This document shows, one piece after another, positions 842 through 27,867 of a stretch of 64,000 nucleotides of DNA; position 1 is the stretch's first letter, and each line of letters starts with the position of its first letter. The stretch is taken from the NCBI GenBank assembly GCA_003707115.1, contig PPNB01000006.1, positions 186,001-250,000 on the forward strand, written 5' to 3'. The notes under the pieces are model-generated. The model was not told the origin of the DNA. It ran no database searches and saw only the letters and a list, made by a program, of their open reading frames with translations. A program made the translations under genes and the position numbers. The stretch is from Tortispora ganteri. Taxonomy: Eukaryota.

Positions 842-2383
842 TTAAGTAGTCCAACCAGTAGCTAGCCTTACTGCTTTTTCCCATAGCTGTATTTTACTCG
901 AACGTTCAGCTTTCGTAGACGTCGATTCAAATCTCGTAATGTTGTATGCAGACATATGATCCAATTCTTCTATAGATTTCCATATTCCAGCACCTATACC
1001 TGCAGCCAATGCTGCTCCAAAAGCTGAAGACTCTTTCATCAATGGTCGTAAAAGAGGGAATCCAAGAATGTCTGCCTGAATCTGGCAAAACTCATCAGAT
1101 GCACTCATACCGCCATCAACCCGCAGCTCCTTCACAGAACCTGCACCAGGTTCGCCAGTACTAGCTGCATCAGCAGACATAGAAATCATGATAGCATCGG
1201 CCTGAAAACAAATAGCTTCAATCAGAGCCCGTATAATATGAGCCTTAGTAGTAAAGCTAGTAATTCCAAATACTGTGCCACGTACGCTGTCTATCCAGTA
1301 TGGAGCAAATAGTCCAGAAAAGCCCGTAACAAACACTACTCCACCTGTATCAGGTACACTGGCTGCCAAAGGTCCCACTTCTTTAGCATCCTGTATGAGA
1401 CCCATACGGTCTTTGGCCCATTGTAACGCTGATCCAGCAACTGCTATGCTTCCTTCCAACGCGTACACGGGTTTCATGCCTTTAAAATGGTATCCCACAG
1501 TCGTTAGGAGCCCGTTTGACGACATCACAGGCTCGTTACCTGTATTATACAGTATAAACGCACCCGTTCCGTAAGTTGCTTTACATTGACCGACATTAAA
1601 TGCCTTTTGCCCTACTAATGCCGCCGATTGGTCTCCGAGGCATCCACTGACAGGACAATTCTGCAATTTACCAAACCCCAATGTACAATACTTTTCAGCT
1701 GAACTGACAATTTTAGGCAGTTTAACACCTTCCAATCCAAAGAATTTAATTAAAGCAGGGTCATATTCAAGCTTTTTGATGTCTATAAGCAAATATCGTG
1801 AAGCGTTCGATGCGTCTGTCACATGAATCCCACCGTCTTTGGCGCCGCTGAAATTGTATAGCAGCCATGAGTCGACAGTGCCTGCCATAAGTGTACCAGC
1901 TTCTTTGGCAGTTCTCACATCAGGCACATTATCTAATAGCCACCTCAATTTCACTGCAAAAAAGTACGATGAAATATTCAGACCGGTTGTCTTGCGGACA
2001 TATTCTGCTTCAGGGAGAGCATTGTATTTAGCAGCTAGTTCCGATGTGCGAACATCCGACCATACTATAGCAGAATGTAATGGTTTTCCTGTTACTGAAT
2101 CCCATACAACAGTAGTTTCACGCTGATTCGTTAAACCAATAGCTTTAATCAGTTTATAGTCTAGGCCACTGTTTTCCATGTCCTTTAGCACCTCGTTAAT
2201 ACATTCTTTGACATCCTCAAATAACCCACAAGGATCATGTTCTACGTATCCTGATTGTGGATACAACGCTTCAATCTCTTTTTGATAAGAAGAGACAATT
2301 TTACCTTCTGTATCGAAAACAATAAAACGCGTTGATGTAGTGCCCTGATCAATTGCACCAATGTATTTCAACGTGTTAACCAT
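842..2383 (-). CDS. GUT1: Glycerol kinase (FGGY family)
   Basis: IDQGTTSTRF, TNQRETTVVWD, TDASNASR, GDQSAALVG, KATYGTGAF, ALEGSIAVAG, FSGLFAPYW and RVDGG motifs. Confidence 0.97.
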   Translation of the reverse strand: MVNTLKYIGAIDQGTTSTRFIVFDTEGKIVSSYQKEIEALYPQSGYVEHDPCGLFEDVKECINEVLKDMENSGLDYKLIKAIGLTNQRETTVVWDSVTGKPLHSAIVWSDVRTSELAAKYNALPEAEYVRKTTGLNISSYFFAVKLRWLLDNVPDVRTAKEAGTLMAGTVDSWLLYNFSGAKDGGIHVTDASNASRYLLIDIKKLEYDPALIKFFGLEGVKLPKIVSSAEKYCTLGFGKLQNCPVSGCLGDQSAALVGQKAFNVGQCKATYGTGAFILYNTGNEPVMSSNGLLTTVGYHFKGMKPVYALEGSIAVAGSALQWAKDRMGLIQDAKEVGPLAASVPDTGGVVFVTGFSGLFAPYWIDSVRGTVFGITSFTTKAHIIRALIEAICFQADAIMISMSADAASTGEPGAGSVKELRVDGGMSASDEFCQIQADILGFPLLRPLMKESSAFGAALAAGIGAGIWKSIEELDHMSAYNITRFESTSTKAERSSKIQLWEKAVRLATGWTT

Positions 2384-15474: not shown

Positions 15475-15600
15475 ATAATCTAAACAATTTTAAGAAAGAT
15501 CATTGAGATTGTCAATAAGACAAGGTAAATTGATTCACTGACGGATGAATTGGGAGTTCTATCTGAAAGATAGAGTTTTTATGCCAAGGTTCTTTTAGAA

Positions 15601-15610
15601 CCGGATAAAT
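15601..15610 (+). promoter_or_regulatory. CCGGATAAAT motif (CGGNTAAW type) upstream of xylitol dehydrogenase
   Basis: The identical 10-mer occurs in the same gene-relative orientation upstream of the xylose reductase (21361-21370, minus strand). A near copy, CGGATGAAT, is at 15542-15550. Confidence 0.55.
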
Positions 15611-15720
15611 TCGACACTGTGGTGACTTTTTCTTTTAACATAATCGTAAAGGAACGCCACCTTTTTGAACAATTTGATCAAAAAGATTTACAATTAAGAT
15701 ACTTAAACTATTAGCTAAAT

Positions 15721-16770
15721 ATGCCGGAAAATCTCTCATTTGTGTTAGAGTCTGTGGGGAATGTGAAATTTGAAGACCGGCCGATACCAGTTCCTGGATT
15801 TAAGGAAGTGCTAATTGAGGTGGTAGTGACTGGTATATGCGGATCAGATGTTCATTATTATACACATGGAGCCATTGGTGACTATGTTATGAAGAAACCT
15901 ATGGTTTTAGGTCATGAATCTGCTGGAAAAGTGGTTAAACTTGGAGATTCAGTAACTAGTTTAACCGTGGGTGATCGCGTTGCACTAGAGCCAGGAGTTC
16001 CTGGGCGTTATTCCAAATGGACTAAGTCAGGCAAATATAATCTAGATGATGATATGAAGTTTGCAGCTACGCCGCCATATGATGGTACACTTTGCAAATA
16101 TTATGTGTTACCAGAAGATTTTTGTTACAAATTGACTGAATCCATGTCTTACGAACAAGGTGCTCTGATTGAGCCGCTGGCAGTGGGTGTACATGTGGCA
16201 AGGCAGGCATGCGTAAAACCCGGAGACAAGTGTGCTGTGTTTGGTGCTGGTCCGGTTGGATTGCTTATTGGACAGGTATGTAAGGCATTTAACTGCGGGT
16301 CTGATGTAACTATTGTTGATATATCGGATGCAAGGCTAGAGATGGCGGCGTCATTAGGATTGATTGCGATCAAAGCTGGGAAAACTCCAGAGGAGACTTC
16401 AGAGAAGATCATTGAATCATTGGGTGGACATCCACAGGCTGTAATGGAAGCATCTGGTGCATTACCTTCTATTAAAGCGGCGTGTCTGGTAGTCGAGAAG
16501 GGAGGCACGTACGTACAGGCGGGTATGGGTAATGACTTTATTGACGGGTTCCCGATATCACAAATTTGTATAAAGGAGGTTTCTTTAAAAGGTTCATTCC
16601 GCTATAGTGAGGGTGATTATTCTACGGCAATCCAACTAGTGGATAAAGGATTAGTGAATGTCAACAAGCTAATTACGAAGAAGTTCTCATTTGCAGAAGC
16701 TAAAGAAGCATTTGAATTTGTCAAAGCAGGTAAAGGTGTTAAAGTGCTTATTGACAATTCTACTTCTTAA
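15721..16770 (+). CDS. XYL2: NAD+-dependent xylitol (sorbitol) dehydrogenase, MDR family
   Basis: TGICGSDVHYY.HG.IG, PMVLGHESAG, GDRVALEPG, KFAATPPYDGTL, GALIEPLAVGVH, FGAGPVGLL, NAD-type Asp (VDI) and GSFRY. Confidence 0.9.
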   Translation: MPENLSFVLESVGNVKFEDRPIPVPGFKEVLIEVVVTGICGSDVHYYTHGAIGDYVMKKPMVLGHESAGKVVKLGDSVTSLTVGDRVALEPGVPGRYSKWTKSGKYNLDDDMKFAATPPYDGTLCKYYVLPEDFCYKLTESMSYEQGALIEPLAVGVHVARQACVKPGDKCAVFGAGPVGLLIGQVCKAFNCGSDVTIVDISDARLEMAASLGLIAIKAGKTPEETSEKIIESLGGHPQAVMEASGALPSIKAACLVVEKGGTYVQAGMGNDFIDGFPISQICIKEVSLKGSFRYSEGDYSTAIQLVDKGLVNVNKLITKKFSFAEAKEAFEFVKAGKGVKVLIDNSTS

Positions 16771-16971
16771 TTCTTAATTGTTTTATTTTATTATTATTAT
16801 TACAAATGGCTTGTTTTTTCATTTATTTATTGAAAAGATATCACTCTTTCTCTGTAACCGCTAAGAACCAAAGCAAAGCATCCTCTTTCCCCCACTCCCC
16901 GCCTTTTCCCCTTTCCCAGCTAAATCATACACACACCCAAAAGCCAGCGATTGGTATCTGCGAAATATAAC

Positions 16972-19158
16972 ATGACAAGTTTACCAGAAGCGGATAATAA
17001 AGCCATTGATTCGCGATCTCGCTCGAGATCTAGAAATGGATGTTGGACCTGTCGGTTACGAAAAAAGAAATGCGACGAAGAAAGACCAGTATGTAATCGC
17101 TGCTCGCTTCTCGATATAGCATGCTATGGGTTTTCTAATTCTGCACCATGGGGTAATGATCCGAGGAAAAAATCACAGGCATTAAATGATATAAAAATAA
17201 TGATTAAACAAGCTCAAGATAGGAAGAAAGAAAAGAATGATCTTACAAAGAAACATGAATCTTCTACCTCCAGTGTTTATACATCCTCAGCAATTCCACC
17301 AATAGCCTCTTCCTCATCCCATGGCCCAAGATCGATCGGCCCACCTAATTCCACAACAATACCTGGACTTTCTGAAGTTTTTTCTGACAATGGTACTTCA
17401 TCTGGCTCTAAAACTCTTCCACCTGTTTCTGAATCTTACAACAACATTAACAACAGCAGCAACACCTCCTCCACCAACATCGCTTCCCTCTCACCAGATT
17501 TCCTCTCCCCAACTGAAGTCCCTCTTTCTCCACGCCCTCTAAGCAACACCAAACAATCAACAACAAAGGACAAGCTGTCATACTTTGAAGGATCTGCAGT
17601 CGTTCTAGAGCATGCCACAATTTCACCTGCAGAACACACTCGCACTATCAGGTTCATAAGAGATAGAGAGTCCGCTCTCCTAATGCACTTTCTCGACACT
17701 CTGTTCCAGCTTCAATTCACCCTGTATACTCCCATGATTCGAGATGGTTCACGCGGCTGGCTCCTGATGATGCTTTTAAAGTCTAAACCCCTCTACAGTG
17801 CCAGTCTAGCCGCTGCTGCCTTGCATCAACAATACGTTCTTAGATCGGCCTCTATTGATATCTCACCGCATGTCACGCAAGAGCTAGAAAAGTATTATAC
17901 ATACTCTTTACAGGCTCTTCAAAGATGTATAAATATTACAATTTCTAAACAAAGCCAATCTTTCTTCAATACTGTTGAAACTCTCGCTTGCATTTGCCAA
18001 CTCGTCTCTCTTGAGGTAATTAACACCACGCGATCCACCAACTGGCAAATCCATGTCCGCGCTGGACTCGATTTATGTCGAGCAATTCGCTGGAAGTTTT
18101 GGTACGGCAGATTCAGCAGACCTGATGAGTTCAGTATCTCCGAAAATTTAAAAGAATCAACTGAAAAATCCGCTGTTCTGCCAAACCCTTACGAAGGTAC
18201 TCCTGAAATCTCACAGACAGACGAGCCAAGTCCTGCCTTGGAGTTTTTGGCTTTTGCATCCCCATTTACACAATCTGCAGAAATTTCGGCCGCTAATTTC
18301 TATTCTTGTATATTAATATGGCTTGACATATGTTCTGCTACAGTCTGTGCTACTATGCCGGCCGGTTTTAAATCATACCAATATCTTCTTTTGGAAGACG
18401 ATTCTATTGAAGACCCTCTTAGTCCTACAGCGACAAAGGCCTCTGCATCTTTAGGAAACATAATGGGCTGTTATAATCACGTTCTTTTATGCATAGCTGA
18501 AATCGCTATTATTCATTATCGTCTGAACAATCCTTACCTTGAATTGTCTCCTTTGAGCGGCTCCGACACTGTCTCCCCGGGCAATACCAACGAGGATATG
18601 TTTTCAGAGTTCAGAATACATGAACGACCTGACCCCCTATTTGCTCCTATTGAGGAGGTGATCAGCAGTGTGAAGGCACGACTGGCTGCATTCATTGAAA
18701 CTCATCAAGAAAACAGGCTTGACGCTAAAGCCGCAGCTTCTAGAATGCCGCCTCCGCAACTGCGAATCTTAAATGAACGCCATAGAATGGCTCAAAGAGC
18801 AGTTACCAGTTACACTTTTGCTTGTGCTGCTCTGGTTTACTTGTACACGGTTACGAATTCCGGAGATATTGGCGCTGCAGCAGACCAGACTGTGTTAGCA
18901 TTGCAAGATATCGACTCGCAAGACCTACTTTTGGGTCTGACATGGCCCATATGTGTTGCTGGAACGATGATGAATAGTAATTCTACGCTTCGGACTTCTT
19001 TCTTGAACATGATTGAGCCCTTGTCGGTACCAAATTTTGGCAACATGGGATCTACTATCCACATTGTTAAGGCCGCCTGGACACGGAGAGACCAGGGGTA
19101 TCCCTGCACTTGGCAGTCTGTCATGGATGAACTAAATATGCGCGTTCTTCTTGTTTGA
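16972..19158 (+). CDS. Zn(II)2Cys6 transcription factor with a C-terminal fungal-specific TF domain (Pro1/NosA-like zinc cluster)
   Basis: RSRNGCWTCRLRKKKCDEERPVCNRCSLLDIAC; later LMHFLD.LF.LQF, RGWLL, WQIH, IMGC.N, LTWPICVAG. First ATG is 16972. Confidence 0.92.
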   Translation: MTSLPEADNKAIDSRSRSRSRNGCWTCRLRKKKCDEERPVCNRCSLLDIACYGFSNSAPWGNDPRKKSQALNDIKIMIKQAQDRKKEKNDLTKKHESSTSSVYTSSAIPPIASSSSHGPRSIGPPNSTTIPGLSEVFSDNGTSSGSKTLPPVSESYNNINNSSNTSSTNIASLSPDFLSPTEVPLSPRPLSNTKQSTTKDKLSYFEGSAVVLEHATISPAEHTRTIRFIRDRESALLMHFLDTLFQLQFTLYTPMIRDGSRGWLLMMLLKSKPLYSASLAAAALHQQYVLRSASIDISPHVTQELEKYYTYSLQALQRCINITISKQSQSFFNTVETLACICQLVSLEVINTTRSTNWQIHVRAGLDLCRAIRWKFWYGRFSRPDEFSISENLKESTEKSAVLPNPYEGTPEISQTDEPSPALEFLAFASPFTQSAEISAANFYSCILIWLDICSATVCATMPAGFKSYQYLLLEDDSIEDPLSPTATKASASLGNIMGCYNHVLLCIAEIAIIHYRLNNPYLELSPLSGSDTVSPGNTNEDMFSEFRIHERPDPLFAPIEEVISSVKARLAAFIETHQENRLDAKAAASRMPPPQLRILNERHRMAQRAVTSYTFACAALVYLYTVTNSGDIGAAADQTVLALQDIDSQDLLLGLTWPICVAGTMMNSNSTLRTSFLNMIEPLSVPNFGNMGSTIHIVKAAWTRRDQGYPCTWQSVMDELNMRVLLV

Positions 19159-19265
19159 CCGTCTATTGGAACGAAGGGTAAGAAGTAGGCGCAACATATT
19201 CGCAGCGCGAATATGTTGCACACTAAATGTCATTATAATCTATTGATACCAATATAACCATGCCA

Positions 19266-20045
19266 TCAGCACGAGCATATAGAGCCCTTTACCGACATAA
19301 TCGACACGCTTCGTCCATCCCATATTGGGCGATCGCCGTATTGAACGCCGCTGCCAGAATCTTCAGGGTCTAAAGAGCCGAGTTCTATTTTTGTGAGGAT
19401 CATGGAAGCCAAACGGACGAAGGCGTCTTCGACGTTAAGGCCAGATTGCGCAGATGTCTGTATGACAGGTATATCAGGGTGTCTAGAACTGAACGCTTCT
19501 AGTTGCGCGTAGGTAATGGGCTGATTAGGCTGGATGACGGAGTAGGGCGAAGAGTAGTTGGGCTGAGCTGAAGAGAGTAGGTCTGTCTTGTTGACAGCTA
19601 GAACTATAGATACTGTGTTATTTGTGAGATTTTTCACATCAACTAGGAAATCCTCTAACGGCGGAAGAGATGCCTGATCCGAGCTATCGGCAACAAGAAG
19701 CACGCCAGCAGATGCACGATAATAAGAGCGCGTGATTGATCTGAATCTTTCCTGACCAGCAGTATCCCAGAGTTGCAGTTTCATACGTTTCACCATGCTT
19801 CTATTTGCACCTCGTGGTCCCGAACGTGAATCTGAGATTTTTAGTAGCCGAGAAGTGAATTCCACACCTACAGTATGAGAAGTCGCGGGTCTAAACTCGC
19901 CTCTAGTGAACCTATGCAATAAACATGATTTTCCCGCTCCAGAGGGTCCCAGTAAGATAATTTTCGCAAGATAATCGTATGTTAGATAGTCAAGTTCCTG
20001 ATCAGATGATTCTATAGTCTTTGAAGACGATTTTCTCCGTCTCAT
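19266..20045 (-). CDS. Rab GTPase, Rab4/Ypt4-like
   Basis: YDYLAKIILLGPSGAGKSCLLHRF, HTVGVEFTS, LQLWDTAGQERFRSITRSYYR, NKTD, TSA, ILTKIELG.LDPED..SGVQYGD and a C-terminal CXC (CSC). Confidence 0.9.
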   Translation of the reverse strand: MRRRKSSSKTIESSDQELDYLTYDYLAKIILLGPSGAGKSCLLHRFTRGEFRPATSHTVGVEFTSRLLKISDSRSGPRGANRSMVKRMKLQLWDTAGQERFRSITRSYYRASAGVLLVADSSDQASLPPLEDFLVDVKNLTNNTVSIVLAVNKTDLLSSAQPNYSSPYSVIQPNQPITYAQLEAFSSRHPDIPVIQTSAQSGLNVEDAFVRLASMILTKIELGSLDPEDSGSGVQYGDRPIWDGRSVSIMSVKGSICSC

Positions 20046-20300
20046 TGTGGGTAAAACTGGTCAACCAATGATGAACAGGGCTAGGCTACCATGTTTCTTT
20101 GGGTCTTGGTCGGTGGAGAACACTTTACGAGAGATGTCACGTGCCTATACAGGAACCAATGGTTTATATATTTTGTCTGTATACATGATTTAAACTCAAC
20201 TTCAGAGCGGGATTGATAGAAGATATATAAAATTGTTTTTTATATTTTGAATGGCTCGTCCAGTTCGTAAAATGAGCTAGCAGATTCTCGTTTGATCATT

Positions 20301-21263
20301 TCAAGCGAAAATGTAGACCGGTTCTGGCCAGTCTGCGGGATCATTGAATCGGAGACCAATATCGAGGCCAGATATCGCATTAATTTCTTGTTCAGAGAGA
20401 TCAAAAGAGGTAACGTCAAAGTTCTCTGCAAGACGCGCCGGGTTAGACGATTTAGGAATGACTGCAATACCATTCTGCGTAGCCCAACGCAGAAGCACCT
20501 GGGCGGGTGTCTTGCCGTGAGCAGCGGCGATTTCGTTAATAAGCGGATGCTTGAACAGTGAAACTACATTCTCGGCCTTGGTAGACTTCAATTCAAGAAA
20601 AGATTGTGGACCAAACGAGGAATAGGCGGTCACGGCTATGTTCTTCTGCTTGGCGAGCTTGAGAAGCGCGGGCTGGGTGAGATACGGGTGGTGTTCGATC
20701 TGTAGCACTGCAGGAGCAATGCGTGCCCCGCGGAGCAAGTCAAGAATAATGGATCCTTGACAGTTCGAAATTCCAATTGAACGGACAAGTCCCTTGTCGA
20801 CAAGAGACTCCATAGCTTTCCATGTCTCGAGAAGAGGAATATTCTCAAAAGCCATAGTGGCAACGTCCTTTCCGCAGTAGAAAGTCGGAGGGTACTTCTC
20901 TTCAGGATCGACGTACTTCTGTGCAATTGGGAAATGAATGAGGAACAAATCGAAGTAGTCTACGCCCCAATCTGCCAACGATCGACGACACATCTTCTCG
21001 ACGTGTTTAGGGTCATGGAAAGAGTTCCATAGTTTGGATGTCACAAACACATCTTCACGTTTAACAATACCGTCATCGATAGCTTTCTTTAGTCCTTGAC
21101 CGGCTTCTTTCTCATTGCCATAGTCCTGAGCGCCGTCGAGGAGTCTGTATCCTGCCTTCAGCACATTGTACACTTGGTCGGCGCAGATACTGGTATCGAC
21201 TTTCCACAGCCCGTAACCGACAAGTGGCATGCTATATCCGGATGATAATTTCACTGAGACCAT
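20301..21263 (-). CDS. XYL1: NAD(P)H-dependent D-xylose (aldose) reductase, AKR2B type
   Basis: [48 protein letters not shown]...[33 protein letters not shown] and LRFNDP.DW. ATG is at 21263. Confidence 0.93.
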
Positions 21264-21360
21264 TTCGCTTTTCAATTATGTACCGTCCGTATAATCTGAT
21301 TCTGACCCGGCTCCAGCAATTGTAGCGCTTTTATATATGCTAAAAAGTAGACCTTACCTC

Positions 21361-21379
21361 ATTTATCCGGACGGGTAAA
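21361..21379. promoter_or_regulatory. Everted pair of CGGNTAAA half-sites (TTTATCCG-GA-CGGGTAAA) upstream of xylose reductase
   Basis: Near-palindrome with one mismatch. 21361-21370 is the reverse complement of the XYL2 promoter 10-mer. A TATA-like run is at about 21329-21338. Confidence 0.55.
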
Positions 21380-27774: not shown

Positions 27775-27867
27775 AGGGTAAGAATCATTTAAAGTTTTTA
27801 GATGACTATAGGGTTTTAATAGGGTGATTGTTAAAGTTGCTAGTTGGTAGGGCTATTTAACAGTCAC
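27775..27867 (+). promoter_or_regulatory. Ribosomal-protein gene promoter: (T)AGGG(T/C) repeats plus a Homol-D-like CAGTCAC
   Basis: AGGGTA 27775, TAGGGT 27809 and 27820, TAGGGCTA 27848, CAGTCAC 27861-27867, about 135 bp upstream of the RPL20 ATG. Confidence 0.6.

Follow-up and report, generated by a model that had tools for sequence, protein, structure and literature searches.

In a 64-kb window of the Tortispora ganteri genome (64,000 nt; contig PPNB01000006.1, positions 186,001 to 250,000), the promoters of XYL1, encoding xylose reductase (XR), and of the XYL2-like gene for xylitol/sorbitol dehydrogenase (XDH) carry the identical 10-mer CCGGATAAAT. In its wider form, CCGG(A/G/T)TAAA(T/A), this motif is likely to be the binding site of the single XlnR orthologue of the genome and to mark a dispersed D-xylose regulon. 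The motif before the XYL genes is most likely a site for XlnR, a regulator known from moulds, and would act as a pentose-responsive element, as a preliminary description of the window had proposed. Systems of this kind are known, but the probable XlnR pentose regulon described here belongs to a budding yeast, from whose lineage such systems had been reported to be absent, and both its core and its target set are altered. How native xylose-using yeasts turn on their xylose genes is poorly known, and a 2021 review (PMC8625115, available in part) describes information on sugar sensing in Scheffersomyces (Sc.) stipitis as limited. The Tortispora genome offers a candidate for the regulator and, throughout the pathway, a cis-element that matches it.

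The preliminary description had pointed to XKS1 (xylulokinase, there XYL3), TAL1 and TKL1 as further places to look for the motif, and all three (3/3) carry it. XKS1 has the exact 10-mer with CGGGTAAAT 15 bp away, TAL1 has CCGGATAAAA at -282 and TKL1 has CCGGGTAAAT at -149, the latter two genes being single matches in the genome. The exact 10-mer is present at the XR, XDH and xylulokinase genes, which are classed as targets by these sites alone, and also upstream of a stand-alone aldose 1-epimerase, with Gal10 as its best solved relative. CCGGNTAAAW was likewise found upstream of this epimerase, one of nine sugar transporters and a gluconokinase, so that CGGNTAAW/GGNTAAA is carried by all of XYL1, XYL2, XKS1, TAL1, TKL1, the epimerase, one transporter and the gluconokinase. 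The suggestion of sites at pentose transporters held for one of nine scored sugar porters, which has three CGGNTAAW sites, but not for the rest. After Tortispora, the best relatives of this porter among the matches listed are filamentous ascomycetes (60-64%), slightly ahead of Lipomyces (56-61%), and no other budding yeasts are named among its best 120 matches. A second sugar porter (L087, G000:C679:21837-26174) has TCGGATAAAT at -409 and TCGGGTGAAA at -554 and is a possible weaker target. The gluconokinase may be a regulon member not listed for Neurospora crassa. The gluconokinase (in a paired-site search) and the epimerase were both found via the motif, and therefore they are not independent tests.

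A TATA-like element follows the site by 25-80 bp at XYL1 and TKL1. The first exon of TKL1 is short (L091:1321-1500, L090:2454-2730), which places its true ATG 180 bp upstream of the long open reading frame (ORF), and a tRNA-like stretch was seen by eye upstream of its promoter. The stop codon of SPC1 lies 8 nt before the XKS1 ATG, and both XlnR-type sites and a TATA-like word are upstream of SPC1; XKS1 would therefore be expressed either on a shared (bicistronic) transcript or from a start inside SPC1.

The counts refer to a genome of 9.63 Mb with ~4860 genes, a number estimated from 214 kb chosen independently of the motif, and to a background set of 209 promoters of 500 bp. Genome-wide, the full 10-mer was counted 20 times, compared to 9 for its reversed control, and 10 of the 20 copies are intergenic. 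Sixteen genes have it within 500 bp of the ATG, and 4 of these 16 encode XR, XDH, xylulokinase and aldose 1-epimerase. Among the background promoters, the exact 10-mer was present in 0, CCGGNTAAAW in 1, CGGNTAAA in 14, CGGNTAAW in 28 and two CGGNTAAW copies in 1. Using the published, untuned CGGNTAAW, XKS1, TAL1 and TKL1 (3/3) differed significantly from the background (28/209; Fisher p 0.003). CCGGNTAAAW, which marks 58 of the ~4860 genes, gave a hypergeometric probability of 1.5e-6 for the same three genes, in a form that is partly tuned, its last position having been relaxed after TAL1 was inspected. With RKI1 included, 3/4 genes carried CGGNTAAW (p 0.01) and 4/4 were within one mismatch of the 10-mer, compared to 8/209 in the background. 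A de novo search identified CCGGNTAAA as the only one-gap 9-mer common to the XYL1, XYL2, XKS1, TAL1 and TKL1 promoters, and 0/5000 random five-promoter sets shared an equally rare pattern. This search is free of the TAL1 tuning problem.

Genome-wide over-representation of the motif was rejected as a signal. The counts were near those of reversed controls (57 vs 46 for CCGGNTAAAT, slightly above only; 40 vs 50), so the signal lies in the placement of the sites, not in their number. All 97 CCGGNTAAAW sites in the genome were taken and one duplicate was merged; 49 of the resulting 96 are intergenic, against a coding fraction of ~0.8. In the window, CCGGATAAAT occurs twice (shuffle mean 0.09; 0/100 shuffles with two copies), and the looser CGGNTAAW shows no enrichment (15 vs 12.5 expected). 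Elsewhere in the genome, a tandem 14-bp repeat with TTTAGCCG (L078:1495-1522, G000:C646:170215-170236) lies upstream of a 376-aa ORF; we take it to be more like a URS1/Ume6-type site than an XlnR site.

The identical 10-mer before both XYL genes had been claimed from the first, and both its presence and its offsets (Table 1) are correct. The everted pair TTTATCCG-GA-CGGGTAAA at XYL1, the near copy CGGATGAAT at XYL2 and the single stray matches at 27867, 28665 and 48162 are present as well. For the matching position and orientation of the two sites, the coordinates stood but the significance did not: the sites of other target promoters lie from -54 to -402 in either orientation, so the match at XYL1 and XYL2 looks incidental. 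The everted pair was rejected as a common architecture, with 4 fitting loci genome-wide and XYL1 the only pentose gene among them. A fixed two-site design was also rejected, as everted pairs (4 loci) and direct pairs (5 loci) were near their controls (6 and 3 matches). The relevant paired sites are those of XYL1 (everted) and of XKS1 and gluconokinase (direct) only, with unequal spacings.

Table 1. Positions of the genes and predicted promoter elements discussed (numbers without prefix are window positions; offsets are relative to the ATG)
Feature	Location	Strand	Remarks
CGGATGAAT, secondary site of XYL2 promoter	15542..15550	+	offset -179
CCGGATAAAT, main predicted XlnR site of XYL2 promoter	15601..15610	+	offset -120
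XYL2-like xylitol/sorbitol dehydrogenase, 349 aa	15721..16770	+	sorbitol dehydrogenase E 2e-89; xylitol dehydrogenase 7y9p E 8e-86
Zn2Cys6 + Fungal_trans_2 factor, Pro1/PtaR3-like, PF11951	16972..19158	+	not XlnR family
Rab-family GTPase between XYL2 and XYL1	19266..20045	-	no known link to motif
XYL1 xylose reductase (aldo-keto reductase), 320 aa	20301..21263	-	yeast xylose reductases E 4e-132; next family E 1e-66
TATA-like element TATATAA of XYL1	21331..21337	-	-74, ~25 bp downstream of CCGGATAAAT site
CCGGATAAAT, main predicted XlnR site of XYL1 promoter	21361..21370	-	offset -107
CGGGTAAA, second site, everted relative to the first	21372..21379	+	pair spans 21362-21379
XlnR orthologue, 789 aa, PF00172 + PF04082	G000:C668:74006-76375	-	
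Sugar porter with three sites, candidate xylose transporter	L124:837-2354 (G000:C557:572836-574353)		
Gluconokinase, short first exon	L164:3022-3666 (G000:C823:493021-493665)		two CGGNTAAAT sites, -80 and -53
SPC1, signal peptidase 12 kDa subunit, 87 aa	L067:6563-6940 (G000:C779:62562-62939)	XKS1 strand	

An orthologue of the XlnR/AraR type, which the preliminary description had recommended searching for, was found on another contig. The genome has 47 zinc-cluster matches; of all their loci, this gene is the best match of both N. crassa XlnR (E 4e-52; next 8e-10) and Aspergillus niger XlnR (E 5e-83; next 2e-10), and the best match is reciprocal. It is the one XlnR-family gene among the 47, and a separate AraR paralogue was not found there. 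Around the first half of its zinc cluster, 14 of 20 residues are identical to those of XlnR, compared to 10 for the next best, and the alignment showed that the zinc cluster, the middle region and the C-terminal tail of XlnR are kept. Its homologues (best 120 of 369 listed) begin with T. caseinolytica, Dipodascopsis, Lipomyces and Geotrichum, followed by many named XlnR, and N. crassa xlnR is among the matches at E 1e-109. XlnR autoregulation was considered and set aside, as no CGGNTAAW lies within 500 bp of the XlnR ATG.

Cluster look-ups and the homologue listing revealed further XlnR-family members in Lipomyces, Blastobotrys adeninivorans (ARAD1B09636p), Geotrichum candidum and Kockiozyma suomiensis. 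Three XlnR-family clusters belong to G. candidum (P0126, P0130, P0144) and two to K. suomiensis (P0136, P0141); several listed Geotrichum-clade proteins have no zinc cluster, perhaps through missed 5' exons. A quick, unrooted maximum-likelihood tree was built from 50 rows picked from the listed matches, with no AraR or GalR knowingly among them. Twenty-one rows formed a Pezizomycotina clade (SH-like approximate likelihood ratio test, SH-aLRT, 100), and these together with Savitreella were split from all named yeast rows (99), in a tree with long branches and a long-branch warning at this very join. The Tortispora XlnR is not nested among the moulds, and the tree fits vertical inheritance. According to the available part of PMC12969433 (2026), Saccharomycotina have no XlnR homologues, and the available part of PMC3998117 places XlnR in filamentous ascomycetes. 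The XlnR-family genes recognised by sequence in Tortispora, Lipomyces, Blastobotrys and Geotrichum contradict the former statement. No report of a budding-yeast XlnR was found in the literature covered, which consisted mostly of titles and the beginnings of abstracts, with subscription papers outside it. The word 'XlnR' appears nowhere in the main text or the 6 supplements of the G. candidum genome paper (PMC4479816).

The described Aspergillus consensus invoked beforehand, CGGNTAAW, agrees with the available text of PMC6323846, in which AoXlnR recognises CGGNTAAW as a monomer, TTAGSCTAA as a dimer and, more weakly, GGCTGA. CGGATGAAT resembles this lower-affinity GGCTGA class and may have a like role here. 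In N. crassa, XLR-1 yielded the chromatin immunoprecipitation (ChIP) motif GGNTAAA and bound xyr-1, xdh, xyk-1 and the ribose-5-phosphate isomerase gene, and its 23 direct targets include the GAL10-like NCU09705 (PMC4620465, available in part). The sites and targets in these two sources match both the Tortispora motif and the Tortispora gene set. An orthologous regulator, a matching site, XR, XDH, xylulokinase, a GAL10-like gene and a sugar transporter are shared with the XlnR/XLR-1/Xyr1 regulon. In contrast, the Tortispora host belongs to Saccharomycotina, the core CCGGATAAA is preferred over GGCTAA, and the dimer site is absent. The Tortispora sites at TAL1, TKL1 and gluconokinase also lie outside the 23-gene N. 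crassa table in the part available, while RKI1 has a variant only. No glycoside hydrolase family was found among the 45 site-bearing genes scanned, no genome search having been aimed at hydrolase families. AraR and GalR belong to the same protein family as the Tortispora XlnR, and the preliminary description gives AraR the same consensus as XlnR. Unlike in that system, Tortispora has one family member, outside the Pezizomycotina clade; according to the available part of PMC3998117, AraR occurs in Eurotiales alone and GalR in A. nidulans alone.

XR promoters of other species were compared in a metagenome scan with XR, in which 80 loci were kept, 40 of them with enough upstream DNA. Twelve intronless loci were re-read from the ATG, and 10 were looked up by protein. 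In G. candidum, a species with XlnR-family genes, CCGGTTAAAA lies at -229 in the promoter of XR. CGGNTAAW was absent from ~700 bp upstream in 6/6 named XR loci (two of C. intermedia and one each of C. albicans, Metschnikowia, Brettanomyces and Torulaspora), species whose presumed lack of XlnR is taken from the available part of PMC12969433 and from their absence among the listed homologues. One of five unnamed loci, or loci not looked up, has CCGGGTAAAT. For the other 28 loci (700 bp read), CCGGNTAAAW or CCGGNTGAWW was found in 5, with the strict form in 2; many of the 28 have 5' introns, which shift the window read. These results lend weak, directional support to XlnR as the reader of the motif.

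XlnR might bind the sites while its regulon has been rewired, in this plant-associated yeast, to a signal other than D-xylose, for example a polyol (xylitol, sorbitol, arabitol) or a sugar acid, which we consider unlikely. The dehydrogenase is as near to sorbitol as to xylitol dehydrogenase, gluconokinase has two sites, even for moulds there is no agreement on the true XlnR inducer (PMC8601170, available in part), and the substrate of the site-bearing transporter could not be named, its best 120 listed homologues bearing generic names. However, aldose 1-epimerase, XR and xylulokinase together point to the entry of free D-xylose, and the same set forms the XLR-1 regulon. Furthermore, no close paralogue of the L-arabitol dehydrogenase type, as expected of an L-arabinose pathway, was scored among 18 matches (best candidates only), the next match being at 29%.

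It is quite unlikely that the motif is a real pentose-pathway element read by another of the Zn2Cys6 factors, of which there are 47 zinc-cluster matches, most obviously the Pro1/PtaR3-like gene that sits within the XYL cluster between XYL2 and XYL1. This neighbour had been put forward as the candidate for electrophoretic mobility shift or ChIP assays. It proved to be a PF11951 protein outside the XlnR family and not an XlnR orthologue; its best relatives with characterised names are cluster regulators such as PtaR3. The Pro1 motif GGCGCTTA (PMC6162560, available in part) was found in 0/8 target promoters, whereas the motif agrees with that of XlnR, of which the genome encodes an orthologue. 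No CGGNTAAW was found in 500 bp upstream of the cluster gene. It is probably not the cluster factor that reads the motif; the likely binder is the product of the distant XlnR gene.

A further explanation is that the sites are general chromatin-opening, Reb1-like elements of many promoters, carrying no sugar signal. The Reb1-like word TTACCCGG is formed at 6 intergenic sites preceded by TTAC, and CCGGNTAAAW is enriched between genes (49/96) and lies before many housekeeping genes. The TKL1 site contains TTACCCGG and the RKI1 variant overlaps it (7/209 background promoters have the word), so both of these housekeeping genes could carry a general element. The caution about Reb1 in the preliminary description is therefore justified for G-centred sites such as that of TKL1, but not for the A-centred sites of XYL1, XYL2, XKS1, TAL1 and the epimerase, including CCGGATAAAT: none of these promoters has the word, which is absent from the 500-bp promoters of XYL1 and XYL2. 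A general factor would also leave unexplained why 4 of the 16 genes with the exact 10-mer fall in one pathway, and we regard this explanation as very unlikely. Finally, a chance recurrence of a 10-mer picked post hoc is hardly credible: the motif was first picked from two promoters and its genome-wide counts are near the reversed controls, but genes named in advance carry it and the de novo null was 0/5000.

Besides the Reb1-like word at TKL1 and RKI1, several observations weigh against an XlnR regulon. Most of the 58 strict-site genes, of which 45 were scanned, are unrelated housekeeping genes; the site alone is therefore insufficient to define the regulon, and since most neighbouring genes are unrelated to sugar use, many sites would be background or Reb1-like. 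RKI1, an XLR-1 target in N. crassa that was added after the first genes, has no CGGNTAAW and carries only the variant CCGGATGAAT at -76. The core is mostly GGATAA and not the canonical GGCTAA; GGCTAAA is present in 3/9 target promoters and in none of the XYL1, XYL2, XKS1, TAL1 and TKL1 promoters, and the dimer site TTAGSCTAA in 0/9. Taken alone, one transporter in nine falls short of significance (p 0.10). SPC1 separates the xylulokinase gene from its sites, which lie at -102 from the SPC1 ATG compared to -374 from the XKS1 ATG. The dehydrogenase scores slightly better against sorbitol than against xylitol dehydrogenase, and 23 of the 28 other XR loci, mostly filamentous-type, lack CCGGNTAAAW in the 700 bp read, in a cross-species set that is small.

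In the proposed XlnR mechanism, xylose or a derivative would be the signal that activates XlnR, by analogy with moulds, where the inducer is unsettled (PMC8601170, available in part). Ahead of each start there would be one or two CCGGDTAAAW sites, which XlnR would occupy in either orientation by monomer-type Zn2Cys6 binding, and XlnR would activate rather than repress. Transcription would be raised for uptake (one sugar porter), mutarotation (aldose 1-epimerase), XR, XDH and xylulokinase. The onward pentose phosphate steps in the regulon would be TAL1, TKL1 and perhaps RKI1 and gluconokinase, and XKS1 would be reached via the transcript shared with SPC1 or a start inside SPC1.

Within the window, XYL1 and XYL2 lie 3.5 kb apart with the Zn2Cys6 gene and the Rab gene in between. 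The XYL2-like product is a zinc-dependent polyol dehydrogenase and the sole close family member scored in the genome; it has no cysteines in the stretch where many family members bind structural zinc. Three proteins of the genome are 87-93% identical to their Tortispora caseinolytica counterparts. A glycerol kinase at the left end of the window (842-2383) adjoins an ORF just outside it (L070:8514-9998), which by eye looks like an FAD-dependent glycerol-3-phosphate dehydrogenase, and the two would form a second small catabolic gene pair on the contig. A metagenome contig (L252) has an aldose/xylose reductase between galactokinase-like and UDP-glucose-epimerase-like ORFs, adjoining a transcription factor, and presumably resembles the published GALLAC cluster of Candida intermedia. 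As in that cluster, known here from part of its source, the sugar genes XYL1 and XYL2 are clustered with a resident Zn2Cys6 gene. Unlike in GALLAC-type clusters, the resident factor is probably not the motif reader, the cluster is broken up by a Rab gene, and the other regulon members are spread over five other places.

Taken as a whole, we consider the following history evenly balanced between true and false. The XlnR xylose switch would be ancestral to budding yeasts and still working in the early-branching Trigonopsidales, Lipomycetales and Dipodascales, with duplication in Geotrichum and Kockiozyma. In Tortispora it would have shrunk to an intracellular regulon that covers the steps between uptake and the non-oxidative pentose phosphate pathway, both included, and acts via CCGGATAAAW, driving xylulokinase through or across the unrelated SPC1, and in later yeast lineages it would have been lost, with the xylose genes placed under other control. 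If the XlnR regulon is real, it would provide a yeast-native xylose-responsive activator together with promoters of very small size (246 bp for the intergenic region of XYL2), and the loss of XlnR would shift to within the budding yeasts.

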